Positions 2,110 to 30,429 of a DNA stretch of 32,000 bases are shown here, piece after piece. The notes beneath the pieces are model-generated. The model had not been told where the DNA came from. It made no database searches and saw nothing but the letters and a program-made list of their open reading frames with translations. The stretch covers positions 1,000,444-1,032,443 of the forward strand of contig PQXB01000001.1 in NCBI GenBank assembly GCA_003194425.1, given 5' to 3'. Origin of the DNA: Candidatus Methanophagaceae archaeon. GTDB taxonomy: Archaea > Halobacteriota > Syntropharchaeia > Alkanophagales > Methanospirareceae. Made by a program: the position numbers and the translations under genes. The stretch's first letter is position 1, and every line of letters begins with the position of its first letter.

Positions 2110-2114
2110 TTTAT

Positions 2115-10769: not shown

Positions 10770-11393
10770 TTATAAAAAGAGACGCTTTACCGCCTTTCCT
10801 CTCCGCTTTGGGACTACCTCCAGCTCCGCACCCTCAAATTTCGCCCTCAACTCCCTGCCCTCCTGCAAGTAGTCGAGAAACAATGCTAGGGCTGCCACCT
10901 CCGAGTGCGGCTGGTTTGAGACTGCGACGTTCCAGTCCGCTGCTTCGAAGACCTCGTACGGCACTTTCTCTGCACCCACTACGACCAGCACTCGAGCCTC
11001 TTCCTGCACACTCTCCCGCCCCTCCTCTCGCACCCCCTCTTGCACCTCCTCTTGCACCTCCTCTCGCACTCCTTCTCGCACCCCTTCTCGCACCCCTTCT
11101 CGTACCTCGCAAATCACATCAGGAAGGTTCTCGCCGTACATCGTGAGGTGGCAGACTTTTCCGCCCTTCTGCTTCCACGCCCTCAGCTCTGCACGCCACT
11201 TCACACCGCTCTGCACAAAGAAGTCGCCGCCCCAGCGCTTAGTTACTTCTCGGACACTTCTCTCTACGCCCTTGTCGTTAGCAGCGAGCAGCATTCCCCT
11301 CGCACCCAACGCACGCCCGACTAATCCAAGATGCGTTGTTGTTCGCTTGTCCCTCTCTGGGCGGTGCCCTAACCTCAAAATCACTATTTCCAT
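10770..11393 (-). CDS. trm56: tRNA (cytidine56-2'-O)-methyltransferase aTrm56 (SPOUT family) carrying a 7 x 12-bp in-frame repeat insertion
   Basis: MEIVILRLGHRPERDKRTTTHLGLVGRALGA, HLTMYGENL, VVVGAEKVPYEVFEAADWNVAVSNQPHSEVAALALFLD match the aTrm56/COG1303 pattern as I remember it. Confidence 0.85.
   Translation of the reverse strand: MEIVILRLGHRPERDKRTTTHLGLVGRALGARGMLLAANDKGVERSVREVTKRWGGDFFVQSGVKWRAELRAWKQKGGKVCHLTMYGENLPDVICEVREGVREGVREGVREEVQEEVQEGVREEGRESVQEEARVLVVVGAEKVPYEVFEAADWNVAVSNQPHSEVAALALFLDYLQEGRELRAKFEGAELEVVPKRRGKAVKRLFL
11027..11110 (-). repeat. 12-bp x7 in-frame tandem repeat inside trm56, encodes (R/Q)E(G/E)V x7
   Basis: Plus-strand units TCT(C/T)G(C/T)AC(C/T)(C/T)C(C/T/G) at 11027, 11039, 11051, 11063, 11075, 11087 and 11099. 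Two adjacent pairs are identical. Confidence 0.9.
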
Positions 11394-11470: not shown

Positions 11471-12073
11471 ATGAGTTGGGCTGTTTGGGTAACAGGCTTG
11501 CCGGGCAGCGGCAAGACCGCAATTGCAAAGCGGGTTAGAGGTGTCCTGAAAGACCTGAAAGAGCGGGGCGTGGCTGACGCGGAGTTGCCGAAGGTGCTTG
11601 AGCTCGACGAGGTGCGGAAATTCGTTACGCCAAAACCCTCTTATTCGGAGGCGGAGCGGGAGGTTGTGTACGCGTCGCTGGTTTTTATGGCGAGGCTTCT
11701 GGTGGAGGAGTGCGGGAGGTCGGTTTTAATCGACGCCACTGCAAACCGACGGCGGTACCGGGAGAGAGCCCGCGAGAGCATTCCGAATTTCGCAGAGGTC
11801 TTCGTGCAGTGCCCTTTAGAGAAGTGCGTTGAACGAGAGCGGAGAAGAAAGGCAAAGCACTCTCCCGCGGGCATCTACGCGAAGGGGCGAGAAAAGGGGG
11901 CGACGGTGCCGGGCGTGAATGTGCCGTACGAGGAGCCGCTGAACCCCGAGGTCGTGGTGAACAGCGGTGAGTTGAGCGTGCAGGAGTGCGCGGATTATGT
12001 AGTAGAATTTATCCTAAAAAATTTTAGTCAAGTTTATAACAACACAATAAATATTTATAAACACAGGAGTTAA
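11471..12073 (+). CDS. adenylylsulfate (APS) kinase-family P-loop kinase
   Basis: VTGLPGSGKTAIAKRV (P-loop), LELDEVRKF, FAEVFVQCPLEKCVERE, VPGVNVPYEEPLNPEVVV follow the CysC-family layout. Start set at ATG 11471 (MSWAVWV) with GAGGG 5-9 nt upstream. The track start 11336 lies inside the trm56 gene. Confidence 0.7.
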   Translation: MSWAVWVTGLPGSGKTAIAKRVRGVLKDLKERGVADAELPKVLELDEVRKFVTPKPSYSEAEREVVYASLVFMARLLVEECGRSVLIDATANRRRYRERARESIPNFAEVFVQCPLEKCVERERRRKAKHSPAGIYAKGREKGATVPGVNVPYEEPLNPEVVVNSGELSVQECADYVVEFILKNFSQVYNNTINIYKHRS

Positions 12074-12081
12074 AAGATAAA

Positions 12082-12107
12082 AGAGCCGTATAAAAGAGTC
12101 GTATAAA
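12082..12107 (+). repeat. 13-bp imperfect tandem duplication AGAG(C/T)CGTATAAA x2 directly upstream of ATG 12110
   Basis: Copies at 12082..12094 and 12095..12107 with one mismatch. Each contains a TATA-like GTATAAA. Confidence 0.85.
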
Positions 12108-12109
12108 AA

Positions 12110-13447
12110 ATGGAAAAAAGAGGGAGAAGAGGAATTGGGAAAGTAGCCGTCTTTGCGTGCTTGTTTTTATTTTTTTTATTTTTATGCACGCCCGCGGCTT
12201 TAGCGAACTACAACTTCGACGGAGTTCCAGTGGAGACAGCGACGAGTGGCACCGTTAACGGCGGTGTCTTTATTGACTACGAACCGTGGGCAGGGACGAC
12301 AACGCTGACCGGTGATTTTGAAGTGCCGAGAGGGGAAGTGAAGTGGGCTCGGTTGTACACGGGCATTTGGGGCGGAACCGAAAAGTACGAAGGTTGGGTA
12401 AATGTGACCTTCAACGGGGTTTGCGACGGCGACGCTGGGCTTGGTCCGATTCACTTGCAAGGGGAAAATGACGCAAACCCAAATGTGTGGTGCAGCACGC
12501 ACGGGAAATATTGGATTTGGTACAATGTGACTGACTTGGTGAACGCAGGGGCAGTGAACACCGCGAGCACGACAAAAATTAACGCAACCGTTGGCGGGTT
12601 CGACGGCAGGGTCTACGGGCTCGTGCTGGTCGTGGTCTACGAGGGCGGCGACAACCCCAAAGAGATTCAGTACTGGGTAAACGACGGCTGCGACGCCTTA
12701 CACTCTTTTGCGTGGCCGCACCCTGCTCACGACACAGGGACAACGGATTTCGACGGTTCTGTGAACGCGGAGAAGGTGAGTAGTGCAAATCTCACAGTGG
12801 TGTTCCTAACCGCTTACGAGCCGGTTTGTGACCGCTGTCTGAAGTTCAACGGGCACGAGTTGGACACGACCGAAGTGGACAGCAACAACTTTGAGTTGAA
12901 GTCCTGGAGTGTAACAGGTTACGTGGCAGCAGCGGGGAACAACGCCTGGTACAGTCGGGGCGAGGACTCGTACGTTAATGTGGCGAACGCGGTCTTGGTC
13001 TTAGAGAACGAGGAGGAAGAAGAAGAAGAACCAACGGTCCGGGTTTCAACGGACAAACCCGAGTACAGCCCCGGCGATGTGATGAATGTCAGCCTGGAGA
13101 TTTGCAATCCGACCGAGGAGGTGGAGACATTCGAGTGGTATTTCGGCGTCCCGCAGTTGGGGATTTGGGCAACTCTAACCAGCACACAGCTACCCGCCGA
13201 GTTTGACGAGACTTTTACAGTTCCGATTTCAGTAGGTGAGTGGGGTGCAACGCCGTTCGGAATCGTGCAGTACGTGCAACTGCTGGACCCGGAGAGCGGC
13301 GAAATCTTGGACCAGGATGTCTGTCTTGCAAAATACAACCCAACTGCTGCTGCCTACGAGGAGGAAAAAGCGACGACGACACAGGACAGGAGACAGGAAA
13401 TAGGAGAAGAAATAAAGAGAGAAGTGGGGAAAGTAGAGTTGCGTTAG
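12110..13447 (+). CDS. secreted DUF3344-like protein (signal peptide, no obvious anchor)
   Basis: Signal peptide MEKRGRRGIGKVAVFACLFLFFLFLCTPAALA. Motifs KWARLYTGIWGG, VYGLVLVVVYEGGDNPKEIQYWVNDGCDAL are shared with the next gene. The DUF3344 (PF11824) assignment is from memory of that family. Poly-Glu hinge ENEEEEEEEP, then a second beta-rich domain. Confidence 0.65.
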   Translation: MEKRGRRGIGKVAVFACLFLFFLFLCTPAALANYNFDGVPVETATSGTVNGGVFIDYEPWAGTTTLTGDFEVPRGEVKWARLYTGIWGGTEKYEGWVNVTFNGVCDGDAGLGPIHLQGENDANPNVWCSTHGKYWIWYNVTDLVNAGAVNTASTTKINATVGGFDGRVYGLVLVVVYEGGDNPKEIQYWVNDGCDALHSFAWPHPAHDTGTTDFDGSVNAEKVSSANLTVVFLTAYEPVCDRCLKFNGHELDTTEVDSNNFELKSWSVTGYVAAAGNNAWYSRGEDSYVNVANAVLVLENEEEEEEEPTVRVSTDKPEYSPGDVMNVSLEICNPTEEVETFEWYFGVPQLGIWATLTSTQLPAEFDETFTVPISVGEWGATPFGIVQYVQLLDPESGEILDQDVCLAKYNPTAAAYEEEKATTTQDRRQEIGEEIKREVGKVELR

Positions 13448-13471
13448 TTCGCGACTCAAAACCCCTTTTTT

Positions 13472-15547
13472 ATGAGACAAGATAAAATGGAAATAAAAAA
13501 AATGCGGACGGTAGTGTTCTTTGGGTGCTTGCTTCTGCTCTTCTGTTTGAGCACGCTTGCACCTGCTTTAGCGGAAGAGGTCAGGCAGCCAGACCTTGCG
13601 ATTACCGCTGTTACACCCTTCCATTTCTGGTCGGAAAAATATGATCTGCCCGCAGGAGACCCTTGGTTCAATCTTACGAATTATGTAAAAGTTACCGTGG
13701 CGAATAACGGGGAAAATAAAACTAACAGAAGCTTTGTAGTGACCTTGTGCGCAAATGACGACGAAATAGGAAGCGAAAGAGTGGAAGAACTGTTAAACCC
13801 AGAAGAGAGCACAGATGTGAGATTCGAGTGGGTGCCAAAAGGAGAAGAAGAAGACCCTTTGAGCTGGACTGACACTGCTGAAGGGGCCATTTGCACCTAC
13901 ACAGACACCAGTGTTGAGTACACGCTAAAGGCGAAGGTGGTCGCTGATGAAGACGGAGAAGTGCTGGCGGAAAATGAAACGAAGCAAAAAGTCGTTTGGA
14001 ACGGCTACAGTGCTGACGAGCCGTTGGAGAATTTAGTGCACGGCGAGGTAGAAGGCGGCATAATTTACAGCACTGGAGACGGTGAATACAGGAGTTACGA
14101 GGACGGAGACAGTGGCACTGACGACACCTACTACGACATTAATTACGATTTAGAGATTCCTGGAACTGGGACAGGGAGCACGAAGCTGGCAAGATTGTAC
14201 ATTTACTACACTTGGGCAAAGCCCTCGTACAAAGCACCGAAAATGAGCGTTAGACTGGAGACGCCTTCAGGCAACAGCTATGATCTGAAGATGGAAAGGA
14301 GCTACAACGACATAAAAGGAGATTTGGGAGGGGATAGATACGCATGGGGCACTTACGCGTACGATATTAAAGAGTATGTGAAAGAAAGCGGGAAATACAG
14401 AGTGAGTGTGAAAAACCTGAACTACGAAGGCAGTGATTCGGAGTTTGCAGACAAGTATTCTTTTGCACCGCCAGCTATTCTTGTCGTTTATGAGGACACA
14501 GCAGCGCCGAAACGAGAATATTGGATAAACGAAGGTGCTGACTTACTAATGAGTAAGGGTGGTGATGAGGAGAGTCCCAGACCCTGCGGTTTCCTTTCTT
14601 TAGAAGAATGCAAAAACACCGCAACATTTTTGGGAGACGTAGATTTGAGCGAGGTAAAAGAAGCGGTGCTTGGCGTTGTCTCTGCCTGGGGTGGTAACCC
14701 AGTAGACGTCTGGCACAGCTATTTGTACTTCAATGACGAGGAGTTAGGAATGGATGTGTACGACGGTTACAGTGGTTCGTGTAGCAAGGAAATGGGTGGC
14801 GTTTTAATGCATGTAGGCTCCGATTACGCTCAACTTGGGATAGAGCTGACTGATGTAAAAGACGACCTTGAAAGTGAAAATAACGAAGTAATTCAAGGCG
14901 ACGACGGGGACAACATGATGCCCACGAATGCATTCTTGCTAATAACTTGTGAAAACGGCGACGACAACGAACCCACACAAAACCCCCCAAACATAACCGC
15001 CTGGAACCCCATTGAGTCCGTTGTGAACAGCACAGAGGACGAACTACGAACCTTCGACATCTCTGTAAACCAAACCGTAGAAATTAGCTGGCAATTAAAC
15101 GGCACACAGGTGCAGACAAACGAGAGCGTAACAGAAGCAGAAGTAGCCACCTACACGAACACGAGTGCAGTTGCAGGGATTTGGAATGTCTCGGCAGTCG
15201 CAACAAACACCGAGACTGGCTTGTCGGCTCGGCACACTTGGCTCTGGAATGTGACGCCTGTGCTTAATGCGACGCCTACTCCTACTCCAAACCCCTCTCC
15301 TACACCCACAGCAAATTTAACTCCAACATCAACACCCTCCTCCGCTACTCCCACACCGCTGACCCCAAGTTTAACACCACCAACTCCAACGCCAACCTCC
15401 GTGCCCAAGGTCACACCTACACCTGCTCTAACTCCAACCCCTACTACAACGCCTGTTCCTGGATTTGAACTTCCGATCACGTTGTGCGGAGTGTTGCTTG
15501 CAGCGGCAGTGGTGCGTGTGCGTCAAGTAAGGAAGAAGAAAAAATGA
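13472..15547 (+). CDS. surface protein: CARDB-like domain + DUF3344-like domain + Ig-like domain + Pro/Thr linker + PGF-CTERM anchor
   Basis: Signal peptide. PDLAITAVTP...VKVTVANNGENKTNRSFVVTL...VRFEWVP is CARDB-like. KLARLYIYYTW and PPAILVVYEDTAAPKREYWINEGADLL are paralogous to 12110..13447. Many N-x-S/T sequons. A ~60-aa P/T-rich linker is followed by PGFELPITLCGVLLAAAVV...RKKKK. Confidence 0.7.
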   Translation: MRQDKMEIKKMRTVVFFGCLLLLFCLSTLAPALAEEVRQPDLAITAVTPFHFWSEKYDLPAGDPWFNLTNYVKVTVANNGENKTNRSFVVTLCANDDEIGSERVEELLNPEESTDVRFEWVPKGEEEDPLSWTDTAEGAICTYTDTSVEYTLKAKVVADEDGEVLAENETKQKVVWNGYSADEPLENLVHGEVEGGIIYSTGDGEYRSYEDGDSGTDDTYYDINYDLEIPGTGTGSTKLARLYIYYTWAKPSYKAPKMSVRLETPSGNSYDLKMERSYNDIKGDLGGDRYAWGTYAYDIKEYVKESGKYRVSVKNLNYEGSDSEFADKYSFAPPAILVVYEDTAAPKREYWINEGADLLMSKGGDEESPRPCGFLSLEECKNTATFLGDVDLSEVKEAVLGVVSAWGGNPVDVWHSYLYFNDEELGMDVYDGYSGSCSKEMGGVLMHVGSDYAQLGIELTDVKDDLESENNEVIQGDDGDNMMPTNAFLLITCENGDDNEPTQNPPNITAWNPIESVVNSTEDELRTFDISVNQTVEISWQLNGTQVQTNESVTEAEVATYTNTSAVAGIWNVSAVATNTETGLSARHTWLWNVTPVLNATPTPTPNPSPTPTANLTPTSTPSSATPTPLTPSLTPPTPTPTSVPKVTPTPALTPTPTTTPVPGFELPITLCGVLLAAAVVRVRQVRKKKK
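15458..15544 (+). other. PGF-CTERM archaeosortase sorting signal of the 13472 gene
   Basis: PGF tripeptide, a hydrophobic helix and a basic tail (PGFELPITLCGVLLAAAVVRVRQVRKKKK), directly after a Pro/Thr linker. Confidence 0.7.
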
Positions 15548-16179
15548 AAAGAAGTAGAGGGAAGAAGAGAGAGGGAATGTTGGTGATTTTGGTGATTTTT
15601 GCTGCAGCACTCCTCTGTGCAACCGCCAACGCCGAGACAACCAAGCCCGCAGTCACACGCACTACGGTCACACGCACTACCAACACCACGACTCCTGCTC
15701 CAGGCTCAACATTTGAGGTGACGCTGAACTTAACAGGGACAGGTCTGCAAATCGGCGGAGTCGTAGAAACGATTCCTGACGGCTTTGCGTTCGTCCGCAC
15801 CACGCACCCCGAAAATCAAACCTACACCGCGGGTCAAAAAGTCGTCTTTGGGGTCGTCAACGAGACAGTGATAAAATATGAAGTCCAAGCACCGTCGTCA
15901 GAAGGCGCGGGCGCGACAACTGGAATCTTCAACGGAGAGTGGTACAACGCCTTGACCAAAGCAAAGGGAGAAATCGGAAGCACGAGCGTTTCTGTGCGGG
16001 CTGGTCTTGGTGCTGCGGAAACGCCCACACCAACATCTACGCCTGCACTCTCGCCTCCTGCTTTAGTGCCCGGGTTCGAGGCGGTGTTTGCGGTTACAGG
16101 ATTGTTTACAGTGGCTGCTGTCCGTTTAGTCTTTGTTCAACTAAAGAAGAAGGGAGGTGAGGCGAGAGGGCGTGAGTAA
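15544..16179 (+). CDS. small PGF-CTERM-anchored surface protein
   Basis: Start ATG 15544 overlaps the previous stop (ATGA). Signal peptide MKRSRGKKREGMLVILVIFAAALLCATANA, a single ~130-aa beta-rich domain, a TPTPTSTP linker, and the canonical PGFEAVFAVTGLFTVAAV + KKK tail. Confidence 0.7.
   Translation: MKRSRGKKREGMLVILVIFAAALLCATANAETTKPAVTRTTVTRTTNTTTPAPGSTFEVTLNLTGTGLQIGGVVETIPDGFAFVRTTHPENQTYTAGQKVVFGVVNETVIKYEVQAPSSEGAGATTGIFNGEWYNALTKAKGEIGSTSVSVRAGLGAAETPTPTSTPALSPPALVPGFEAVFAVTGLFTVAAVRLVFVQLKKKGGEARGRE
15652..15681 (+). repeat. 15-bp x2 in-frame tandem duplication (GTCACACGCACTAC G/C), encodes VTRTT x2
   Basis: Copies at 15652..15666 and 15667..15681, just after the predicted signal-peptide cleavage site. 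Confidence 0.9.
16069..16176 (+). other. PGF-CTERM archaeosortase sorting signal of the 15544 gene
   Basis: PGFEAVFAVTGLFTVAAVRLVFVQLKKKGG after a TPTPTSTPALSPP linker. Close to the canonical TIGR04126 pattern as I recall it. Confidence 0.75.
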
Positions 16180-17377
16180 GTTTAAGTTGTTTCTTTGGCT
16201 GCTGTCTGCGTTGGTCTTCTTTTCCTCCGTGAGCACGGCTTCAGCGGACGAAGTGGACGACCTGCTAAACAAGTGCGGAATCGCTCCTGACCCGAAGCCG
16301 TCTGTGATGGTTTACGACTACGAGCTCAGCCCGGAGACGCTGATGCCCGGCGATCTGGGCGTGCTTACGGTAACGCTCAAGAATATGCAGGAGGAGCCGA
16401 TTGAGAAGGATGTGGACATAAAAGAAGAAGTAGTAGCGGACTACACAACCGTAGAAAAGACAACAACAACGAAAAAGACAACAACAAAGGAAAACACAAC
16501 AAAAGAGAAAGGGACAACCACAGAGGAAGAAACAACAAATACAATAAAGGAGAAAGTTGAACCTAAAATGCGAACCATTGACATTGACGCCGAGACGATG
16601 TTCACGATGGACGCTTTCGTAAAAGAAGCCTACATTCTCGAGAACAACGACTTTAAAGTCTACAACAAATATCTCTCGGCTGGCGTAGTCGGACCCGACG
16701 AGAAAATTGACTTCGCGTTCAAGATAAAAGCCCCTGCTGAAGAGGGGATTTTTATGCTGAAGTTCGTTGCAGACATTGAGGACACAGAAGGGAAGAACAG
16801 CAAAGGGATTCGCTATTTTATCCCTGTTACTGTTGCAGGCACGCTGAAAATAATGCCTCTCGAAGTCTCGCAGAACGAGGTCAGGTTGCAAGTTGTAAAC
16901 GAGGGGCTGTCTGACGCTGACTGCGTTTTTGCGACGGCAAGCGACGGCGGGCTGGAATTCGAGCAGGAAGAAATCTACCTCGGCAGGATAAAATCTGGCG
17001 AGTCTGCTGTCGCTGTGTTTAAGGTCTGTGAAGCCGAAGAAGGCGAGAACAGTGCAGTTGCAGTTTTCAAGGCGACTTACAAGAACGGCGTAAACGAGCA
17101 CGAGTCCAACCAAGTCTGTGTGAAAATGCTGTCTCTGCGTTGCGGCGGCGGGGAAAAAGAAGAAGAGAAAGAAAAAGAGAAAGAGAAAGAAGTAGAAGAA
17201 GAAACGGTGTTGCTGTTGGAAGGACAAGGGCAGCCAGAAACCCCTCTCGGGAAAAGGTTAGGGGCAGGTTTCGCAGTTGCTGTGCTTGTAGAGGCTGTAG
17301 CAGGAGCAGTGGCAGTGGGTTTTGGTCGGAAAAAGGGAAAGAGAAGAAGTAGGGAAGAAGGAGGAGAAGAAGAATGA
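16157..17377 (+). CDS. COG1361/CARDB-like S-layer-domain protein with C-terminal TM anchor and charged tail
   Basis: GTG 16157 or GTG 16172 (GGAGGTGA at 16153..16160) overlaps the previous stop at 16179. Signal peptide KFKLFLWLLSALVFFSSVSTASA. VMVYDYELSPETLMPGDLGVLTVTLKN is typical of COG1361-type domains. Has a T/K/E low-complexity insert. C-terminal GAGFAVAVLVEAVAGAVAVGF + KKGKRRSREE. Confidence 0.6.
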   Translation: MRREGVSKFKLFLWLLSALVFFSSVSTASADEVDDLLNKCGIAPDPKPSVMVYDYELSPETLMPGDLGVLTVTLKNMQEEPIEKDVDIKEEVVADYTTVEKTTTTKKTTTKENTTKEKGTTTEEETTNTIKEKVEPKMRTIDIDAETMFTMDAFVKEAYILENNDFKVYNKYLSAGVVGPDEKIDFAFKIKAPAEEGIFMLKFVADIEDTEGKNSKGIRYFIPVTVAGTLKIMPLEVSQNEVRLQVVNEGLSDADCVFATASDGGLEFEQEEIYLGRIKSGESAVAVFKVCEAEEGENSAVAVFKATYKNGVNEHESNQVCVKMLSLRCGGGEKEEEKEKEKEKEVEEETVLLLEGQGQPETPLGKRLGAGFAVAVLVEAVAGAVAVGFGRKKGKRRSREEGGEEE

Positions 17378-18663
17378 AAAAGAAACTGTTGGCTTCTCTC
17401 TCGGTAGTAGTGGTTCTAACATCGGTGGTCGTTGCTGGTGCTGGAGGAGGGGGAGGAAGTGTTGAGGTTGGTTTTTCTGCTTCTTCTGCTTCTTCTGTTT
17501 CGAGGGGGGAGGTCGTAAATGAAATTATGAATTTTATGAAGGAGAGATATTTAGGGGAAGATTTAGGGGAGGGGCCCCTTGGCGAAGAAGAGCTCTGCAA
17601 ACTCGCCTGCACTTATTTTTACCGCGGCAGGTACCCAAGAACAATTACGACCGCGACAGGCGAAAATGTTACGATTTACAAGCCGCTGGAGCGGGTGGTT
17701 GTGCTGAACACGGACATTGCGGAGACGATTCGCGTTTTAGGTGCCGAGGGCAAAATAGTCGGCATCAGCGACACGATAAAAAAACGACCTGCCTTTTTCC
17801 CGAAGATAAGTAAAAGACCGGTGGTTGGGGGGTGGAAGGAGATTGACGTCGAGGCGGTGCTGCAGTTAGAGCCCGACGCTGTCTTTGCTTACGGGAACTG
17901 GCCTGGTCCTGAATACATCGAGGAGAAACTACCGCCGAGCGTAACCGTCGTCCGACTGGACTTCTTCAAGCCCAAAGAACTCAGAGACGGTTTAAAAACT
18001 TTTGGTTATTTTCTTGAAGAGGAGGAAAATGCAAGTAAGTACCTCGAGTGGCACGACAAATATGCGGGCGAGATAAAAGAGCGGGTGGCAGAGATTCGAG
18101 AACGGCGAGGAGGGCGGAAAGACGAGCCGATTAAAGTCTTCCTCGACAAGAGCGCGGAGGAGTCAGTAAACGAACGCAAGACCTTTTCAGAGGGGACAGG
18201 AATGCACCAGCTCTGCGAACTCGCAGGCGGGCAGAACATTGCTGTGACCGCCGAGCTCGTAGGAACTTACCCGACTGTAGCGACCGAGAAGATTTTGGAG
18301 CAAGACCCTGCGGTCATTGTTGGGCTCTCTCGCAAGGGTGGCTACGAGACCGACGACGAATCCGGGCTGAAAGAGGAACACGAAAGGTTGGTTGGGCTAC
18401 CGGGGTTTGACAATCTCACAGCGGTAGAAAACGAGCGCGTTTACCTAATCGACAGCAGTGTGGCGTTCGGTCCGAGTTACCCCGTCGGTCTCGCCTACCT
18501 CGCAAACTGGCTCTACCCAGAGGAGTTTGAGGATTTGGATTTTAATTTAGATTTAAACCCGCAAGCAATTCTCCAAGAATATTTGGACAATTTCTGCGGC
18601 ATTGACTTCGATCTCACGAAGCACGGGGTGTTTGTGTTTCCGGGAACGGGAACGGAGGGGTGA
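17374..18663 (+). CDS. FecB/BtuF-type (Peripla_BP_2) substrate-binding protein, N-terminally membrane anchored
   Basis: ATG 17374 overlaps the previous stop (ATGA). TM/signal MKKKLLASLSVVVVLTSVVVAG. VTIYKPLERVVVLNTDIAETIRVLGAEGKIVGISD...WKEIDVEAVLQLEPDAVFA is the classic cluster-A iron-siderophore/cobalamin binding-protein pattern. Confidence 0.8.
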   Translation: MKKKLLASLSVVVVLTSVVVAGAGGGGGSVEVGFSASSASSVSRGEVVNEIMNFMKERYLGEDLGEGPLGEEELCKLACTYFYRGRYPRTITTATGENVTIYKPLERVVVLNTDIAETIRVLGAEGKIVGISDTIKKRPAFFPKISKRPVVGGWKEIDVEAVLQLEPDAVFAYGNWPGPEYIEEKLPPSVTVVRLDFFKPKELRDGLKTFGYFLEEEENASKYLEWHDKYAGEIKERVAEIRERRGGRKDEPIKVFLDKSAEESVNERKTFSEGTGMHQLCELAGGQNIAVTAELVGTYPTVATEKILEQDPAVIVGLSRKGGYETDDESGLKEEHERLVGLPGFDNLTAVENERVYLIDSSVAFGPSYPVGLAYLANWLYPEEFEDLDFNLDLNPQAILQEYLDNFCGIDFDLTKHGVFVFPGTGTEG

Positions 18664-21128
18664 TGAAAAGAGAAAGGAAAAGCAGCAGGAGGAAGAAGAG
18701 GAAGAAGGGCTTTTGTGTTAGTGTGACACTGGTAGCCTTTGCAGTGCTGGCGGTAGTGCTTCTTGCACTTTCTTCTACCGCGTCCGCAAAGTCCGTCCGC
18801 AGGAATTACACCGACGACGGCGAAGGTGGTTTCTTGTGGTACAATGAGACGGACAGTAGTAGTACGGCAGAGCACGCATCACCTATACCTAAATTTTACG
18901 AAGGTGAAAAGATTTATTTTTTGAACAATGCATCAAACAAGTCGGAGAATGTGAGTGTTTCGGGTCCTTGGAATGACGATGAGCCTGTCAAAGATGAAGG
19001 CGAGGAAGTTAAAGCAGGCGAGTTCTGGGATTCAGAAGGAAGATCAACGAATAAATATTACTATGTAAAAGATTCTTCTGGAGACGGCGGAGGCTGGCTA
19101 AAACTTGAGAAGCAGTCGTTAAAGGTAGAAATAGTTGGAAAGGAGGATAATAAAAAGACGAAGGTGGTGGAGGGGAATGAATTCAACCTCAGATTAAAGA
19201 AGAACGAGAAAGAGGGAGGGGTTTTGAAGATGACAATCGAGAATAAGGAAAATAAAAATCGAATAGAAGATGAGAAAGGCACTGAAATCTACGAAGTACT
19301 CGTGAGATACAGCTGGAAGGATTTTCTACCTTATGACGACAAGACCAACAGGATCGTGGTTTCTGCTGACAAGACAAAGGTAATAAAAGGGGTACAAATA
19401 AATGAGGATAAAAGACTCGTCTTCAACACCTCTCACCTGAAGATGGAGGGAGGTGAAGAGTACACGATAAGATTAGAGGACTACGCAACAGAGGTAGAAG
19501 CTACGGCAGACATAAAGGTTGTGGAAAAGGAGGTGGAGATAGAATGTGACGAGGAAGTGATACAAGGAGATGACATTGAGATAACGATAAAAAGTTCGTT
19601 CTGCGATGAAACCGCAAACATCACGATTAAATGTGCGGGAGAGTTTTGGAAGAATGGTACAGGGAATAAAACAGTACAGCTTGACGAAGACGGGCAGGCT
19701 ACTGCTTATTTTTCCACAGACGACGCGGAGCTTGGCAGGCAAGAGGTGACCGTTGTAGTCAGCGGAATGGAGAGGGTAAAATATGTAATGGTAAGGGAGG
19801 GGGAGGCGAGTTTAGAAGATGTGCCCGCAGAGGCGACTGTCGGCGACATTGTCACTCTAAAAGGCAGTTCGAACTTCGGTGAGTACGCAATCTTCGTGAT
19901 TGAAGATGTCTTTAAAAAAGAAGAGAAGATCGCGGGTGACAAATTCGAGTGGGTCTGGGACACGACCGGCGAGACTGACGGCTACAATAATATTGAGATT
20001 TTCATTCTTGACGAGCGCGCACCATTTTCTGTTGGAGATTATGTAAGTGAAGACTGGAAGAAGAGTGAGGAAGGGAAGAAAGGAGGAGTAGACGCTTCTG
20101 CGGGCATTTACTTGCTCCCGCCGGAGCTCACTATGAGCGTTCCGGAAATCGTATCTGATGACGACGAGGTGGAAGTAAACGGGACAGCCACTGGCACTGA
20201 CCACGTTTACCTCATCGTCATCGACTACAAGGGCGAACTGATATTTCCAGCGGGCGGAATTGAGAAGGCGACACCTGTCATCGATGACAAGTGGAACGAG
20301 AACATCGGCGAACTCGACTCTGCCAGGTACTGCGTGATTTCTGTTCACAAGGGCAAAGACGGAACGACAAAAGCGATTGAAGGCGGTAAGTGGGTGGTAG
20401 CAGAGGAAAGTCTCAAAGGCAAGTCGTTGAAGCAGAAAATAGCGATTCTTGAGGGTGAGGACGTTTTGGGAGAAGCGGGCAGCGACGACCTCTACGAGAA
20501 AGCGTACTTCACGGTCTCTGCACCGAGAGTCAGTCTTGAAGTGCCGGGAACGGTGCAAATCGGCGACCCGATTTCGGTGACGGCAGAGACGAACATAAAA
20601 GATGGAGAAAGGGCTTTTGTCTTCCTCTCGCAGAACTCAAGCCTCGTAGACAAGACAACCGCGACAGTCGCGGGCAGGAAAGTAGAAGCAAGCCTCAACA
20701 CGAGCGGGCTTGGACTTCAGCCAGGGAAATACGAAGTGAAGGTGGATGTCAGCGGGCGGGCTTCTGACGAGAAGGTAGTGACGCTGGTGGAGAAAGAGGA
20801 AAACGAGCCAACACAGCCGCCGGTGAGCAACGAAACTGAGCCACCGGGGAGCAACGAAACTGAGCCACCGGAGCCACCGGGGATGAACGAACCTAAGCCG
20901 CAGGGGGAGAACGAACTTGAGATTGAGGGCGGATTTGGAGAGGCTGAACTTGGGGAAGAGGGCGCGAACGGGACGAACGAGGGCTTTGAAGAGGAAGAAG
21001 CGGGAGAGGGAGCAGAGGGAAAGCCGAAGATGAGAATACCGCTAAACTCCTGGGATTTGCTCGTCTCGGTCTGTCTGGCGTTTTCTATTTCGACTGCCTT
21101 GAAGAAGCGTCGGCGGAGGCGTTGTTAA
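18660..21128 (+). CDS. large multi-domain surface protein with C-terminal TM anchor and poly-Arg tail
   Basis: GTG 18660 / ATG 18663 overlaps the previous stop. Basic N-terminus plus TM (FCVSVTLVAFAVLAVVLLAL). Repeated beta-rich modules, then an SNETEPP-type 24-bp repeat linker. C-terminal LLVSVCLAFSISTAL + KKRRRRRC. No family recognised. Confidence 0.65.
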   Translation: MMKRERKSSRRKKRKKGFCVSVTLVAFAVLAVVLLALSSTASAKSVRRNYTDDGEGGFLWYNETDSSSTAEHASPIPKFYEGEKIYFLNNASNKSENVSVSGPWNDDEPVKDEGEEVKAGEFWDSEGRSTNKYYYVKDSSGDGGGWLKLEKQSLKVEIVGKEDNKKTKVVEGNEFNLRLKKNEKEGGVLKMTIENKENKNRIEDEKGTEIYEVLVRYSWKDFLPYDDKTNRIVVSADKTKVIKGVQINEDKRLVFNTSHLKMEGGEEYTIRLEDYATEVEATADIKVVEKEVEIECDEEVIQGDDIEITIKSSFCDETANITIKCAGEFWKNGTGNKTVQLDEDGQATAYFSTDDAELGRQEVTVVVSGMERVKYVMVREGEASLEDVPAEATVGDIVTLKGSSNFGEYAIFVIEDVFKKEEKIAGDKFEWVWDTTGETDGYNNIEIFILDERAPFSVGDYVSEDWKKSEEGKKGGVDASAGIYLLPPELTMSVPEIVSDDDEVEVNGTATGTDHVYLIVIDYKGELIFPAGGIEKATPVIDDKWNENIGELDSARYCVISVHKGKDGTTKAIEGGKWVVAEESLKGKSLKQKIAILEGEDVLGEAGSDDLYEKAYFTVSAPRVSLEVPGTVQIGDPISVTAETNIKDGERAFVFLSQNSSLVDKTTATVAGRKVEASLNTSGLGLQPGKYEVKVDVSGRASDEKVVTLVEKEENEPTQPPVSNETEPPGSNETEPPEPPGMNEPKPQGENELEIEGGFGEAELGEEGANGTNEGFEEEEAGEGAEGKPKMRIPLNSWDLLVSVCLAFSISTALKKRRRRRC
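20822..20926 (+). repeat. 24-bp in-frame repeat: two near-identical copies plus degenerate copies, encodes (V/G)SNETEPP-type linker
   Basis: GGTGAGCAACGAAACTGAGCCACC at 20822 and GGGGAGCAACGAAACTGAGCCACC at 20846. Diverged units follow at 20879 and 20903. Confidence 0.8.
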
Positions 21129-21174: not shown

Positions 21175-22632
21175 ATGTGGCTATTTGGAAAGAAGCGACA
21201 CCCAAGACTGCTTAAAACGCAAAAAGTCAATTACTCGGACTTGTTTTTCATTTTGCGGCTCTCGCGGGGCGACCTCACGCTGAAACCGATTTTCATCGCG
21301 GCGAGTGTTGAACTCGGAAACAGCACCACAAAATCAATCCTGACCGCTACGGACTTGAAGAGCGGAAAGACCTACATTTTGGACAAGGCGGTCAGAATGA
21401 CCCGCGAGGCTCTCGACACTGGTGACTCGTTCTGCCACACGATTACAAATGTCGGGCTCTCGGAAGACTCGATCGCGGAGCTGGTGAAAGAGACACTACA
21501 GGAGTCTGCGAAGTCGGCAGGAATAACGATTCCGGATTTGCATTTCGTCGTGCGTTCTACGGGCGTAACAGCGTCCTTCTCGAAAATTGAGGAGGTTGAA
21601 GGCGTGATAAAAGCGTTGGCAAAGGGCTGCCTGCTCGCGGGAGTGCCGCCGCGGAAGATGATTTCGCCGATGAGTGTGGATAACATTGCGCCCGAGTTGC
21701 GGAAGTTTTCGAGGATGGAGAAGACTTATTTCGACGGTGCAGTGGCAGGCAACCTCCCACCCGCGGGCGAGTCAATCGTAGCGAACGAGATGGAGGGCGA
21801 GCTCGTAACCGCGGGGCTCAAGGAGGCTGCGAAATGGGTTGACGATGTGGATTTTCGGAACCCTGTTCTCTCCTTAGACTTCGGCACCACGCTCGCAGGT
21901 CGAATCTCGGACGACGGGCTGCCCTACGCCCGCGTTGTTGGAAATTTCTGCGGCTTGGCAGGCGCGATTCCCGACGCGATCGTCTCGCAGGTTGTCAGGC
22001 AGGACTACCCCTCTGTCCTCGACTTGCACTTGCAAAGCCAAAAAAAGAGACGGGTAAAAAAGGAAAAGGAGGTTGTGAGCGGCTACACCGAGGAGATTTT
22101 GAGGTTTATTCGCGTGGAAAAGGTAAAGAACGGCGCTCGCAGTAGAGTAGGCGGAGTGCCGGTAAATGCCGGTGCAGCGGAGAAGAGTGGCGTTGTCTTA
22201 ATTGGAATTGACGCGGGCGAGAACCTCTCGGAGTTGCCGAAATTGGCGGAAATCGGTGCAGAGCTCGTAAAAGAAGAGGGCGAGCAGTACCTTGCACCTG
22301 TGATTGACGAGTTGGCGGGGTGCGAGGTTGAGCGGTTGGTCGGAGTGGCGAAGGAGGAAGGTTTATTACTGCCTAACACGAAAATAGGAATAACGGGCAG
22401 GGCAGGAATAACGGGGAAGAAGCCCGAAATAATCTTGGAGAAGTTAAGCAAGTTGCTTGGACGGGAAATGGAGAAAGAAGTGATTTTTGCGGACGACGCA
22501 CTAGCACGGGGTGCTGCGGTTCTCGGAAAATGTATGCACCAGTTCGGAACGCCCCAGAACCCGATAGGCGGCATTCAAGGTCAAGGCTGCGTCTTTGGCA
22601 AGAGGGTGAAGAAGCAGAAAGGAAGGGTTTGA
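21175..22632 (+). CDS. mmp14: methanogenesis marker protein 14-like (ASKHA/actin-fold ATPase-like)
   Basis: 485 aa. The N-terminal IFIAASVELGNSTTKSILTATDL matches my memory of the TIGR03285 family (ASVELGNTTTK, phosphate-1-like motif). Size fits. True start uncertain: the first ~35 codons may be non-coding. Confidence 0.6.
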   Translation: MWLFGKKRHPRLLKTQKVNYSDLFFILRLSRGDLTLKPIFIAASVELGNSTTKSILTATDLKSGKTYILDKAVRMTREALDTGDSFCHTITNVGLSEDSIAELVKETLQESAKSAGITIPDLHFVVRSTGVTASFSKIEEVEGVIKALAKGCLLAGVPPRKMISPMSVDNIAPELRKFSRMEKTYFDGAVAGNLPPAGESIVANEMEGELVTAGLKEAAKWVDDVDFRNPVLSLDFGTTLAGRISDDGLPYARVVGNFCGLAGAIPDAIVSQVVRQDYPSVLDLHLQSQKKRRVKKEKEVVSGYTEEILRFIRVEKVKNGARSRVGGVPVNAGAAEKSGVVLIGIDAGENLSELPKLAEIGAELVKEEGEQYLAPVIDELAGCEVERLVGVAKEEGLLLPNTKIGITGRAGITGKKPEIILEKLSKLLGREMEKEVIFADDALARGAAVLGKCMHQFGTPQNPIGGIQGQGCVFGKRVKKQKGRV

Positions 22633-22648
22633 AGGAGAGAAAGAGAAA

Positions 22649-22702
22649 GAAGGTGAGAAAGGGAATGAAGGTGAGAAAGGGAATGAAGGTGAGAAAGAAA
22701 GG
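22649..22702 (+). repeat. 18-bp x3 intergenic tandem repeat GAAGGTGAGAAAGGGAAT
   Basis: Copies at 22649 and 22667 are identical; the copy at 22685 differs in its 3' third. They lie between the mmp14 stop (22632) and ATG 22727. Confidence 0.9.
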
Positions 22703-22726
22703 GAGAGAGAAAAGGGAGGAGAGGAA

Positions 22727-23368
22727 ATGGAGGTGAAAGTGGAAGGAGGGGACGAGTTTGCAAATGCGAGTTACGAGAAATTGTGCAATCTTATCTGCAG
22801 GGACATTGGCGTAAAAGGAAACATCGACAGGCTACAGATGTTCTGCAACGCGGCGGAGCACATTTTTATACTCTCGGTTAAGATCGGCAGAGTGGGAAGC
22901 CCAGTGAAAGTGAGGGATGTAACGCAGCGAGAGGGGAAGAAGTTGAGGATAACAAACGAGAAATATGCACCCGAGTTGCTCGCTCTCTTGTGGGACAAAT
23001 ACGGAAAGGGAAAGGAAGAGGGAGTGGAAGAGGGAGTGGAAGAGGGAGTGGAAGAGGAAGAGGGAGACGGAGAGAGAGGAGGCGAGCGGGTTCGTCAAAT
23101 AAGCAGGTTAGAGGTGGGGTTTGAACTGAAGGAGGAGGAGGTTGCGGAACTGATGGAATTGGTTGTTTCTGACCCCCGAGATGACTTGACCTTCAAGATT
23201 TTGGACGGAATTGACCGAATATTGCCCGAGGGGGCGCGAGTGCGGCATCCTGTTTCTACTGCACACGGGGTAACAATTCTCGCTTCAGAAAATCCAATAA
23301 AAGAGGAGTGGAGAGCGACGGCAGAAAAAATAGCGCAGGAAATGGAGGGGGTGAATGAAAATGTATGA
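22727..23368 (+). CDS. probable methanogenesis marker protein 17-like protein
   Basis: 213 aa, GGAGG upstream of ATG 22727, and an 8-14 nt overlap with the downstream McrC-family gene. N-terminal MEVKVEGGDEFANASYEKL and EKYAPELLALLWDKYG resemble what I recall of Mmp17 (TIGR03291). Not verified. Contains a 12-bp EEGV repeat. Confidence 0.45.
   Translation: MEVKVEGGDEFANASYEKLCNLICRDIGVKGNIDRLQMFCNAAEHIFILSVKIGRVGSPVKVRDVTQREGKKLRITNEKYAPELLALLWDKYGKGKEEGVEEGVEEGVEEEEGDGERGGERVRQISRLEVGFELKEEEVAELMELVVSDPRDDLTFKILDGIDRILPEGARVRHPVSTAHGVTILASENPIKEEWRATAEKIAQEMEGVNENV
23015..23062 (+). repeat. 12-bp in-frame tandem repeat GAAGAGGGAGTG x3 plus one degenerate copy, encodes (EEGV)3
   Basis: Perfect copies at 23015, 23027 and 23039. 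GAAGAGGAAGAG at 23051. Confidence 0.9.
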
Positions 23369-24299
23369 AATAATGATGTTTACTGGAGGAGTGTACAAGT
23401 TCAACGAGTTGAAGGAGGTGGTAGAGGACATTGGGGGGTTCGTGCTGCAAGAGATGGTAATGCAGTCCGAGACGATGATGCATTTGGCGTTTCCAGTGGA
23501 AGAGGAGCCTAGAATTCGGGCTAAAGCGAAGGAGTTGGGAGGCAAGCTGAAGGAGTTGCCGTTGGCGGGTGCTGAAATAATGGTCGTCGTCCCGTCGCTC
23601 GGCAAACACCACGCAGTTGACCCGATGTGCGATGTAGCGGAGTTTCTGCGGCGGAACGGTGCGATTACAAATATGATTGGGCTGGCAAGAGGCGTGGGGA
23701 AGCGGATTGCACAAATGACGGCACGAGAGAAGGCGATAATCGAGGAATGCGACGCTGCGGTTTTTGTCTTCGGCAATTTCAAGGAGTGCTTGACAGAGAA
23801 GGCTGCGAGGTTGTGCAGCGGGCTTGAAGTGCCGTATTTAATTGTTGGCGGTCCGCCGGAGTCTGATTTGGCTGAGTCTGATTTGGCTGAGTCTGATTTG
23901 GGTTTGGATTTAGAAAATTATGTGGGTGGCGTAGGAAGGAGAGCAGAGCGGATGAGGCGGAAATCGGAGATTGAACTGTTAGAAAAGATGGTAGAGGCGT
24001 TGAAGGAGGTTCTGGACGAGAAGAAGCGGGAGCTGGAAGAGGACCCGTTGGCTGCTTCGCCGTTGTTCGTGAAGGAGATGATAGAGATGAATTTGCCGCC
24101 AAAGGCGGGTGAGGAGTTGCCGATTGTTATTCATCTTGACGGGCTGCGGGTGAAGGTCGGGCAGGAGGACGAGGAGCGGGTTTTGGAGATCGAGATTGGG
24201 AAGAGGCGGCTCTCGGAGATTTGCGAGATGAAAGAGTCTTTGTACTCGGGGCATTTGCTGAAGGTTCTGCCAGAAGCGGTTACGGGGTCGGTCTTTTGA
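23355..24299 (+). CDS. mmp7: methanogenesis marker protein 7 (McrC-family paralogue)
   Basis: IMVVVPSLGKHHAVDPMCDVAEFLRRNGAITNMIGLARGVG and AAVFVFGNFKECLTEKAARLCSGLEVPYLIVGGPP align by eye with McrC segments (VVVVAMSPGRRHITKPVCEI..., VIHFGNV...IPTIIVCQAP). The ~310 aa length and MYEIMMFTGGVYK N-terminus fit Mmp7 rather than McrC. Alternative start ATG 23361. Confidence 0.65.
   Translation: MKMYEIMMFTGGVYKFNELKEVVEDIGGFVLQEMVMQSETMMHLAFPVEEEPRIRAKAKELGGKLKELPLAGAEIMVVVPSLGKHHAVDPMCDVAEFLRRNGAITNMIGLARGVGKRIAQMTAREKAIIEECDAAVFVFGNFKECLTEKAARLCSGLEVPYLIVGGPPESDLAESDLAESDLGLDLENYVGGVGRRAERMRRKSEIELLEKMVEALKEVLDEKKRELEEDPLAASPLFVKEMIEMNLPPKAGEELPIVIHLDGLRVKVGQEDEERVLEIEIGKRRLSEICEMKESLYSGHLLKVLPEAVTGSVF
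23859..23903 (+). repeat. 15-bp x3 in-frame tandem repeat GAGTCTGATTTGGCT, encodes (ESDLA)n inside mmp7
   Basis: Copies at 23859 and 23874 are perfect; the copy at 23889 has one change (GGT). Confidence 0.9.
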
Positions 24300-28647: not shown

Positions 28648-28710
28648 TGTTCTTTCTTCTTTTTACTTATTTTTCTTTCGTTTTCTCCGTCTTTAATTGT
28701 TATTTGAAAA

Positions 28711-28791
28711 GGGAAGAGATTTGAAGAGGGAAGAGAAGAGATTTGAAGAGGGAAGAGAAGAGATTTGAAGAGAGAAGAGGAAGTTCAAAGA
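28711..28791 (+). repeat. 22-bp intergenic tandem repeat GGGAAGAGAAGAGATTTGAAGA: two perfect copies flanked by a shorter and a degenerate copy
   Basis: 17-nt short copy at 28711..28727. Perfect copies at 28728..28749 and 28750..28771. Degenerate copy at 28772..28791. All lie upstream of ATG 28803. Confidence 0.9.
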
Positions 28792-30356: not shown

Positions 30357-30429
30357 TGGGCTCGATGCGATTCGAACGCATGACCTCCGCCTCGTCAAGG
30401 CGACGTCATTCCAACTAGACCACGAGCCC
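30357..30429 (-). tRNA. tRNA-Val (anticodon GAC), no encoded CCA
   Basis: Hand-folded cloverleaf from GGGCTCGTGGTCTAGTTGGAATGACGTCGCCTTGACGAGGCGGAGGTCATGCGTTCGAATCGCATCGAGCCCA. It has a 7-bp acceptor stem, a 5-bp anticodon stem with loop TTGACGA, a 5-bp T stem with loop TTCGAAT, and discriminator A. It is followed by TTTAAC. Confidence 0.9.

Follow-up and report, generated by a model that had tools for sequence, protein, structure and literature searches.

The window analysed here is a stretch of 32,000 nucleotides (nt) from contig PQXB01000001.1, and its host is an archaeon of the anaerobic methanotrophic group ANME-1 (Methanophagales). It holds a block of six forward-strand genes, called g1 to g6 below, that forms a genuine ANME-1 cell-envelope operon of composite make-up, consisting of a three-gene core and a shell. 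The open reading frames (ORFs) are g1 at 12110-13447 (445 amino acids), g2 at 13472-15547 (691), g3 at 15544-16179 (211), g4 at 16172-17377 (401, or 406 from an alternative start at 16157), g5 at 17374-18663 (429) and g6 at 18663-21128 (821, or 822 from an alternative start at 18660). A sequence-only reading of the window had described six same-strand ORFs packed with one 24-nt gap and four start/stop overlaps, and each of these junctions was found where it had been placed, as were all the peptide motifs quoted. The spacer between g1 and g2 (13448-13471, 24 nt) is the sole non-overlapping junction and ends in a run of six T. The g2/g3 and g4/g5 junctions are ATGA tetranucleotides (15544-15547 and 17374-17377), g5 and g6 meet in GTGATGA (18660-18666), and at the g3/g4 junction two GTG codons, at 16157 and 16172, both lie 5' of the TAA stop ending at 16179.

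For g4 the most likely start is GTG 16172, because the GGAGGTGA motif lies upstream of it, homologues begin there and the resulting overlap of -8 is the one seen in relatives. Shine-Dalgarno-like GGAGG or AGGAG precedes g4, g5 and g6, and none is present before g1, g2 and g3. The six genes are probably co-transcribed. The T6 run had been placed at 13461-13466 and raised as a possible internal terminator; it lies at 13466-13471, is one of 13 runs of at least five T on the forward strand of the block, and was rejected as a terminator for being non-distinctive. Sigma-70 promoters and intrinsic terminators, for which a scan has little meaning in archaea, were counted at or below the level expected from shuffled sequence (3 vs 5.4 and 15 vs 13.2).

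The putative promoter region is 12030-12109 on the forward strand, where TATA-like elements precede g1: TTTATAAA at 12054 and TATAAA at 12089 and 12102. The TATAAA boxes are held by a 13-nt tandem repeat, ATAAAAGAGCCGT, found by Tandem Repeats Finder in 2.5 copies at 12077-12108; it abuts the ATG of g1, its last base falling one base short of the start codon. This repeat may be a promoter element that has been duplicated, or else the site of a regulator, and a leaderless g1 transcript is conceivable. An Rfam scan of the whole window returned no cobalamin, NiCo or other riboswitch, the sole match being a tRNA (30357-30429).

Export signals are present on all six products. Hydropathy gives an N-terminal hydrophobic segment in 6/6 proteins and C-terminal hydrophobic and basic tails in g2, g3, g4 and g6, with none in g1 and g5. 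Together with the conserved overlaps described below, this upholds the earlier claim of one tightly coupled unit of exported or anchored proteins. The topologies that had been predicted are borne out by hydropathy: g1 is unanchored and g5 has an N-terminal hydrophobic anchor or signal. The PGF-CTERM signal of g3 exceeds its cut-off, the PGF signal of g2 falls below the cut-offs, and the tail of g4 is better described as a degenerate PGF-CTERM.

Conservation of the trio

Conservation was followed in a census of 72 related loci, 34 of them genome loci collected with a profile of the g4 alignment (A1) and 38 metagenome loci collected with a g3 profile. The fetched loci carry L-numbers and were labelled by tblastn and ORF clustering, and g4 lineages were defined at 80% identity. 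Named homologues come from ANME-1 (Methanophagales, Methanospirareceae, GoMg isolates). The locus is found with identical gene order in 16 contigs of the same species. The sequence-only reading had staked its proposal on the order recurring in some relative, and L014 (ANME-1 GoMg1) reproduces the full six-gene order at 40-68% protein identity.

Within the block, conservation is concentrated on g3, g4 and g5. This trio is present in 13/23 g4 lineages, the g3/g4/g5 overlaps of -4/-8/-17 nt are kept in about 16 genome loci at 41-69% protein identity, and the order g3-g4-g5 is kept in 12/12 further metagenome contigs long enough to show it. Because the overlaps are conserved down to 41% identity and the order is kept, the block is more than chance, and these comparisons mark g3-g4-g5 as the invariant unit of the operon. 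Variants of the arrangement were also seen. L067 (2280-6531) carries a tandem g3-g4 duplication before a single binding-protein gene (g3-g4-g3-g4-g5), L059 has the order SBP-g4-g3-SBP, where SBP stands for solute-binding protein, and in L078, L080, L084 and L086 g3 is followed directly by an SBP gene, without g4.

The outer genes behave differently. The sequence-only reading had seen an operon built around a pair of DUF3344 genes, and this emphasis has to be shifted to the trio, since DUF3344 genes lie directly upstream in only 5/13 trio lineages (the window, L014, L015, L017 and L044). They also lie directly upstream of the trio in the metagenome contigs L065, L068, L076 and L082; other trios have ExbB/DUF2149 or housekeeping genes there. 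L013 and L044 share at least 80% g4 identity, yet the former has ExbB upstream and the latter three DUF3344 genes, which shows that the upstream region is flexible. A g6 homologue follows g5 in L014 only, and L044 passes from g5 straight to leuA; judged from these relatives, g6 is dispensable.

It has also to be asked whether the block is a functional unit at all, or a set of chance or mis-called ORFs with accidental overlaps. A 320-residue antisense ORF (16265-17227, reverse strand) does lie opposite the purine-rich g4, and in assembly GCA_029935775.1 (L002, 12261-13097, reverse strand) an antisense gene of 278 residues was annotated in place of g4. Such an explanation is nevertheless scarcely credible and is refuted by the conservation data, as conserved homologues exist for each of the ORFs, three of which match Pfam models strongly, and the order is identical among the same-species contigs and orthologous at the lower identities given above. 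In L002 the g4 match breaks in two at the acidic repeat (query residues 1-355 and 338-406), a sign of a change in repeat length or of a frameshift.

Domain content of the six products

The product of g5 is a class III (Peripla_BP_2) SBP whose N-terminus bears a hydrophobic anchor or signal; it also has a Gly/Ser linker and lacks an anchor at the C-terminus. It matches PF01497 with 89 bits (E=4.1e-25; gathering score 27.5 bits) over model positions 1-234 of 235, in agreement with the earlier assignment. Its NCBIfam matches are all sub-threshold and comprise PGF-anchored SBPs and ferrichrome, IsdE, BtuF and F420-0 binders; the best of them, TIGR04281, reaches 80.1 bits against a trusted cut-off of 325, which leaves g5 outside that equivalog. 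Its sequence relatives in the PDB bind siderophores, haem, B12 or oxyanions (MolA-type), with E=1e-14 and weaker. In an alignment of 18 SBPs, of which 17 are trio-linked, conservation reaches at least 90% at 95 residues.

In the product of g3, a signal peptide and a Thr-rich segment precede a beta-sandwich of about 110 residues, after which come a Pro/Thr linker and a PGF-CTERM signal that scores above threshold (PF18204, 22.7 bits vs a cut-off of 18.8). No Pfam family covers the sandwich domain. Homologues were found in 72 clusters, the named ones being ANME-1/Methanophagales, and in the loci examined g3 always adjoins a Peripla_BP_2 gene. An AlphaFold2 model predicts a nine-strand sandwich with core residues 41-152 at a predicted local distance difference test (pLDDT) score above 90, and Foldseek returned generic immunoglobulin (Ig)-like matches only: CLIPPER at the top, integrin, BslA, cohesins and YcnI. 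The identification of g3 as a cohesin or a copper-binding protein was rejected, the resemblances being too weak (template modelling (TM) score of about 0.5 for cohesin and 0.59 for YcnI). A role as the cohesin for dockerin-bearing DUF3344 proteins was likewise rejected, as there is no Pfam cohesin match at E<=1 and g1 and g2 are without dockerin.

The product of g4 has a signal peptide and CARDB-like beta-sandwich domains, which a Thr/Glu/Lys-rich insert interrupts; an acidic repeat and a PGF-type anchor of degenerate form complete it. It has no match in Pfam or NCBIfam, including no CARDB and no PGF-CTERM match; its tail is taken as a degenerate PGF-CTERM in view of the orthologues, many of which terminate in a genuine PGFGAV... 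motif. Homologues form 99 clusters at 41-96% identity, with named members almost all from ANME-1, and alignment A1 contains the invariant motif NG(I/V)N.HE. The family is narrow, a profile search of 1.84 billion proteins giving 19 representatives at E<1e-30. More distant profile relatives are proteins of about 400 residues with weak CARDB, NPCBM_assoc or A2M matches, and one g4 homologue (P0173) carries CARDB. These matches place the g4 family inside a broader CARDB-like superfamily, and they are indirect evidence on the COG1361 ('S-layer domain') label that g4 had been given earlier.

The remaining three products make up the variable part of the operon. The claim that g1 and g2 are diverged DUF3344 paralogues was confirmed by Pfam: g1 matches PF11824 with 176.7 bits (E=9.4e-52, model positions 4-275 of 275) and g2 with 138.4 bits (E=4.7e-40, model positions 1-274 of 275), both above the gathering score of 27.2 bits, so that both are full-length members. 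Their DUF3344 domains share 25% identity, making them deep paralogues, and each has much closer orthologues elsewhere, at 55-71% identity. Hydropathy shows g1 to be without a membrane anchor; it is a secreted protein in which an N-terminal signal is followed by a DUF3344 jelly roll (residues 37-299) and, towards the C-terminus, by an Ig-like domain and an acidic tail. Its AlphaFold2 model (mean pLDDT 82.6) is an all-beta fold, and Foldseek matches its jelly roll and Ig-like domain to GH2/LacZ, Endo-D, PNGase and C3b at TM scores of about 0.17-0.20; being generic and low, these matches allow no inference of a catalytic role. Orthologues of g1 at 60-71% identity occur in L015, L044, L046 and L047.

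The layout of g2 is CARDB, DUF3344, a beta-rich region, a Thr/Pro linker and a PGF-type C-terminal anchor. The CARDB module, also proposed earlier, is above its cut-off of 22.7 when g2 residues 1-180 are scanned alone (PF07705, 40.6 bits, E=3.2e-10) and is not listed in the whole-protein scan at E<=0.01. The protein carries a literal PGF motif, PVPGFELPITLCGVLLAAAVV...KKKK, and scores below the corresponding cut-offs (PF18204, 12.3 vs 18.8; TIGR04126, 16.4 vs 24.5). Orthologues of g2 (43-61% identity) lie directly upstream of g3 in L014, L015, L017, L044, L065, L068, L076 and L082. In L015 (5134-7374, 770 residues) and L044 (5298-7976, 892 residues) g1-type and g2-type modules are fused in one ORF, and a separate g2 orthologue follows each fused ORF; a fusion of this Rosetta-stone type links the two DUF3344 paralogues. 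ANME-1 have a greatly enlarged set of DUF3344 proteins, in which CARDB, dockerin or beta-helix domains are often present as well. A literature search on DUF3344 and COG1361 yielded no functional data, DUF3344 being mentioned without an assigned function.

The product of g6 is exported and carries Ig-like repeats, an acidic low-complexity C-terminal region, a transmembrane segment and an RRRRRC tail. Its Pfam matches are Ig-like only and all sub-threshold, and a PGF motif is absent; the NCBIfam scan gave no match for g1, g3, g4 or g6, and g3, g4 and g6 are families without Pfam models. The homologue in L014 (40% identity) occupies the same position after g5, the one in L048 (31% identity, E=5e-81) overlaps a DUF3344 gene, and g6-family proteins of 745-773 residues at 23-27% identity are encoded nearby on the opposite strand in L010, L011, L046 and L047. 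On this distribution g6 looks like a variable shell component that comes and goes among relatives.

DUF3344 genes also occur in a MacB-type module, in which a CARDB-DUF3344 gene (about 596 residues), a DUF3344 gene (about 340 residues), ABC_tran and MacB_PCD/FtsX genes follow one another, often overlapping. It was found in L046 (1-4588), L047 (1-4328) and L048 (8001-12679), that is, in ANME-1 and in a metagenome-assembled genome (MAG) labelled 'Methanomicrobia archaeon', and MacB/FtsX is also encoded upstream of the DUF3344 genes of L044 (1-650). These gene orders suggest that MacB-type ATP-binding cassette (ABC) machines have many DUF3344 proteins as their partners or substrates. The sequence-only reading had expected the six products to be parts of one surface assembly, an idea that is not supported; elsewhere the DUF3344 genes go with a MacB-type ABC module instead.

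Such modules raise the question of whether the block is a mosaic, in which g1, g2 and g6 would belong to a DUF3344/MacB-type ABC system for mechanotransmission or export, juxtaposed with an unrelated g3-g4-g5 uptake module, the overlaps being due to genome compaction. The conserved module in L046, L047 and L048 and the MacB/FtsX gene of L044 fit this idea, as do the DUF3344 gene of L048 that overlaps a g6 homologue with no trio nearby and the interchangeable region upstream of the trio in the close relatives L013 and L044. The idea is nonetheless improbable. At least nine loci from several lineages have DUF3344 genes immediately 5' of g3, and L046 and L047 again group g1-, g2-, g6- and g3-like genes with SBP genes in another arrangement; this repeated re-association of the components argues for functional linkage. 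Moreover, no MacB gene is present among the scanned ORFs of the window.

Neighbourhoods and proposed role

The trio genes and their paralogues adjoin genes of several uptake systems in relatives. In L083, genes for ABC_tran, FecCD (E=7e-87), a Peripla_BP_2 protein (49% identity to g5) and a g3 homologue (53%, with PGF-CTERM) abut or overlap, and L047 combines a g3-like gene, an SBP gene, a radical S-adenosylmethionine (SAM) gene and FecCD. These two layouts point to g3 as an accessory gene of class III binding-protein importers. No claim is made that the radical SAM protein of L047, with about 330 residues and Fer4_12, is a ChuW-like haem degrader, as it is not HemN-like.

Metal-related neighbours of other kinds were also found. 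A single lineage of three close genomes (L020, L022, L025) has, after the trio and on the strand of the trio, genes for DUF4198 (NikK-like, with PGF-CTERM), CbiM, a small NikL-like protein and a CbiQ-like protein. NikK and NikL mark nickel-type NikKMLQO systems, and NikK acts outside the cytoplasm as an accessory to a transporter that otherwise works without a binding protein (PMC2667541). MotA_ExbB and DUF2149 genes divergently adjoin the trio in L026 and L064 (Pfam and tblastn), and L013 has only an ExbB-like gene beside it (tblastn).

In L009 (10001-21046) and L040 (9974-17158), g4 paralogues are translationally coupled to secreted CobN-like genes, in the order g4 paralogue, CobN-like (signal peptide, 1373 residues), DUF2162, MotA_ExbB, DUF2149 and a second secreted CobN-like gene. 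By its gene content this cluster is an apparent archaeal look-alike of hmuSTUV, the part of the Bacteroidota hmu operon for haem-iron harvesting that encodes CobN, a hypothetical protein, ExbB and DUF2149 (PMC10434189, PMC12583661). HmuS is a haem dechelatase whose head and neck domains resemble periplasmic binding proteins, and many archaeal HmuS homologues exist whose role is unexplained (PMC12583661). The MAG RS_14_10 has both the CobN locus (L040) and the trio (L012), and L045 brings together a g3-like gene, two SBP genes, a methyltransferase gene and CobN. Upstream of the CobN cluster of the L009/L040 type, a protein of 313 residues shows a weak ribbon-helix-helix match below the Pfam cut-off.

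Taken together, the locus is read here, at about an even chance, as an envelope-anchored capture module for a metal chelate or a metallo-tetrapyrrole. The binding protein g5 and the two PGF-CTERM-anchored beta-sandwich proteins g3 and g4 would form the constant, translationally coupled core, with g3 and g4 as extracytoplasmic partners that keep g5 inside the thick envelope of ANME-1 or hand the ligand to it across this envelope. Candidates for the ligand are complexes of Ni, Co or Fe, corrinoids, haem and F430-like compounds, and loaded g5 would feed a FecCD-type ABC importer or a Nik/Cbi energy-coupling factor (ECF) module encoded elsewhere in the genome. The products of g1, g2 and g6 would be a lineage-variable outer shell, whose lectin- or adhesin-like modules may extend the reach of the core and probably bind envelope glycan, mineral or partner surfaces. 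Gene structure and coupling, domain content, the conservation of the trio and its links to neighbouring genes have been demonstrated; the interaction of the products, the identity of the ligand and the direction of transfer are steps that we infer.

Several observations lead to this proposal. Capture of a metal chelate is indicated because g5 is a clear Peripla_BP_2 protein with siderophore-, haem-, B12- and oxyanion-binding relatives, because the trio or its paralogues adjoin FecCD, Nik/Cbi, CobN, ExbB and DUF2149 genes, and because the coupling and order of the trio are conserved; the signals on all six products speak for an anchored form of capture. There are also precedents. In ANME, Ni/peptide (NikA/OppA) and TroA-type metal-uptake binding proteins are commonly dockerin-tethered (PMC9012536), and Methanoperedens plasmids encode DUF3344 proteins between NikR and Cbi/ECF transporters (PMC9674854). 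The sequence-only reading had offered metal or corrinoid capture as a speculation, to which the gene neighbourhoods lend real support.

A number of results weigh against the capture module. Among window ORFs of at least 150 residues there is no FecCD permease, ABC_tran or other permease or ATPase for g5. FecCD importer genes are missing beside most trios and were found next to none of the trios in genome loci; an importer operon of the FecCD type was found for the related SBP and g3 pair in L083 and partly also in L047. No more than about 4-5/13 trio lineages have Ni, CobN and ExbB neighbours, which, with the other neighbours, point to different ligands (Ni2+, haem, corrinoid, generic chelates). 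In g3 and g4 there is no recognisable metal- or haem-binding motif and no Pfam match to NEAT or HmuY, and few His or Cys are conserved. Fold searches with g1 and g3 gave generic beta-sandwich or jelly-roll matches only, and remote relatives of g4 are found in gene clusters for glycosylation or other envelope functions (for example L037), which fits a structural role equally well.

This last group of results bears on a different explanation, namely that the locus serves envelope architecture or adhesion. The six products would then be structural or adhesive parts of a sheath, of an S-layer-like envelope or of an apparatus for cell-cell or mineral attachment, and the fold of g5 would be structural, sensory or merely co-located. 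DUF3344 is listed as an adhesin-tip candidate of ambiguous function in a survey of fibrillar adhesins (PMC9210967), and the envelope proteins of ANME-1 are unknown (PMC9012536). The modelled fold of g1 is a lectin-like jelly roll, the top structural match of the g3 model is the adhesin CLIPPER domain, with cohesins also listed, g6 has the form of an Ig-repeat stalk, and the distant g4 relatives in L037 lie in glycosyltransferase clusters. In the window itself, a PMT/PMT_2-type glycosyltransferase with 4TMC (593 residues, 5545-7326, forward strand) is encoded 5 kb upstream; that this enzyme could glycosylate the Thr/Pro-rich linkers of g2, g3 and g4 is speculative. An adhesion locus would leave unexplained, however, why g3 is invariably beside a Peripla_BP_2 gene, even inside a FecCD importer operon, and why g4 paralogues are paired with secreted CobN-like chelatases, ExbB/DUF2149 or NikKMLQ; the strong conservation of g5 is also as expected of a ligand-binding protein. 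On balance this explanation is rather unlikely.

The capture module can be extended to a bolder form, which is tentative and somewhat doubtful. The operon may encode an undescribed, archaeosortase-anchored ANME-1 relay that scavenges metal chelates or metallo-tetrapyrrole cofactors (Ni, Co, Fe; corrinoid, haem, F430-type) from sulfidic sediment, with g3 and g4 as surface adaptors for chelate binders of the periplasmic-binding-protein fold and with the DUF3344 proteins and g6 as an outward capture layer. In the window the g3/g4 families, both new, would have the class III SBP as their partner; at paralogous loci the partners would be secreted CobN/HmuS-like (de)chelatases driven by ExbB/DUF2149. 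If so, the relay would amount to an archaeal equivalent of Isd and Hmu made of unrelated components, and it would give a first function to DUF3344 and to many archaeal CobN homologues.

ANME-1 need much Ni (F430 in methyl-coenzyme M reductase, MCR), Co (corrinoids) and Fe (cytochromes) in settings where sulfide makes metals scarce, and their metal acquisition and envelope make-up are open questions (PMC9012536). The locus is a testable candidate in this respect, with a binding protein and two anchored partners conserved across ANME-1, and it provides first hypotheses for the g3, g4 and g6 families, for DUF3344 and for the archaeal HmuS/CobN homologues (PMC12583661). Should its role be only structural, it would still nominate envelope components of an uncultured, biogeochemically important group. 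The comparative-genomic signal is solid, and the functional hypothesis is testable.

The upstream flank of the operon is housekeeping, with an APS-kinase-like gene, Trm56, polyprenyl synthase and argininosuccinate lyase. The region immediately 3' of g6 (21175-24299, forward strand) encodes DUF2114 (E=1e-166), DUF2113 and MCR operon protein C (McrC); we take DUF2114 and DUF2113 to be methanogenesis marker proteins 14 and 7 (mmp14, mmp7). A TATA-like TTTATTAG is present in the 46-nt spacer after g6. A functional link to mmp14-mmp7-mcrC was rejected, since the adjacency is lineage-specific and relatives have leuA or other genes instead; it is probably coincidental. Farther away are a LarA-like protein (Lar_N, LarA_C, DUF362; 27340-28647, reverse strand) with no evident operon link, of a family that depends on a nickel-pincer cofactor, and a fused N6_N4 DNA methylase and Mrr_cat protein of 517 residues (640-2193, reverse strand), a single-polypeptide restriction-modification-like enzyme.

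Purine-rich tandem repeats of 12 or 18 nt run in frame through unrelated proteins of the window and give them acidic low-complexity stretches (sites 11013-11106, 23003-23072, 6443-6513 and 4197-4318). They are found in Trm56 ('VREGVREGVREE...') and the DUF2113 protein ('EGVEEGVEEGVEEEE'), both of which have their Pfam match split in two, and in the PMT-like protein. Similar repeats fill the intergenic regions 22630-22733 and 28702-28779.

Comparison with known systems

One of the closest likenesses in logic is to the Isd system of S. aureus for haem acquisition, which comprises the NEAT receptors IsdB/H/A/C, the class III binding protein IsdE and the permease IsdF. In both cases surface-anchored beta-sandwich proteins are encoded with a Peripla_BP_2 protein, and the relay proposed here, in which a metal chelate would cross a thick envelope and reach an ABC importer, would resemble Isd in logic only. 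The product of g5 is weakly similar to IsdE (NCBIfam E=2e-7). The LPXTG signals and sortase of Isd are paralleled by PGF-CTERM and archaeosortase, in that a sorting signal is processed by a dedicated sortase-like enzyme. NEAT is absent from g1-g6 by Pfam (at E<=1 for g3, g4, g6 and parts of g1 and g2), no NEAT structure is among the top 50 Foldseek matches of g3, and the cluster, from an archaeal lineage and built of unrelated protein families, is without a permease, sortase or haem oxygenase gene.

The hmuYRSTUV system of Bacteroidota (HmuS CobN-like, HmuU ExbB-like, HmuV DUF2149) is approached through relatives of the locus. In L009 and L040 g4 paralogues are coupled to CobN/HmuS-like, DUF2162, ExbB and DUF2149 genes, and the trio is flanked by ExbB and DUF2149 in L026 and L064 and by an ExbB-like gene in L013. 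The window itself, in contrast, is without CobN, DUF2162, ExbB and DUF2149 (tblastn of the L009 proteins matched g4 only), and it has a class III binding protein, not a chelatase. To our knowledge, Archaea are without HmuY and the TonB-dependent HmuR. The NikKMLQO/CbiMNQO systems are resembled in one ANME-1 lineage, where the trio is followed by NikK-like, CbiM, NikL-like and CbiQ-like genes, whereas no Cbi or Nik gene is present among the scanned window ORFs of at least 150 residues. We know of no ECF transporter that uses Peripla_BP_2 proteins.

Haloarchaeal SBPs of TIGR04281 and the dockerin-tethered binders of ANME (PMC9012536) share with this locus that archaeal binding proteins are fixed to the surface; unlike them, g5 has no PGF-CTERM or dockerin of its own, and the anchors are on the separate proteins g3 and g4. 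As DUF3344 surface proteins, g1 and g2 are full-length members that here are attached to an SBP trio and not to ABC_tran and MacB_PCD/FtsX, as in L046-L048. The locus is thus not a member of the Isd, hmu or Nik/Cbi systems. The literature searched holds no description of the g3-g4-SBP trio or of the links that join it to CobN/ExbB/DUF2149 and NikKMLQ; by analogy with the systems compared, the kind of locus it appears to represent, surface-anchored and binding-protein-dependent uptake with accessory receptors, is itself known.

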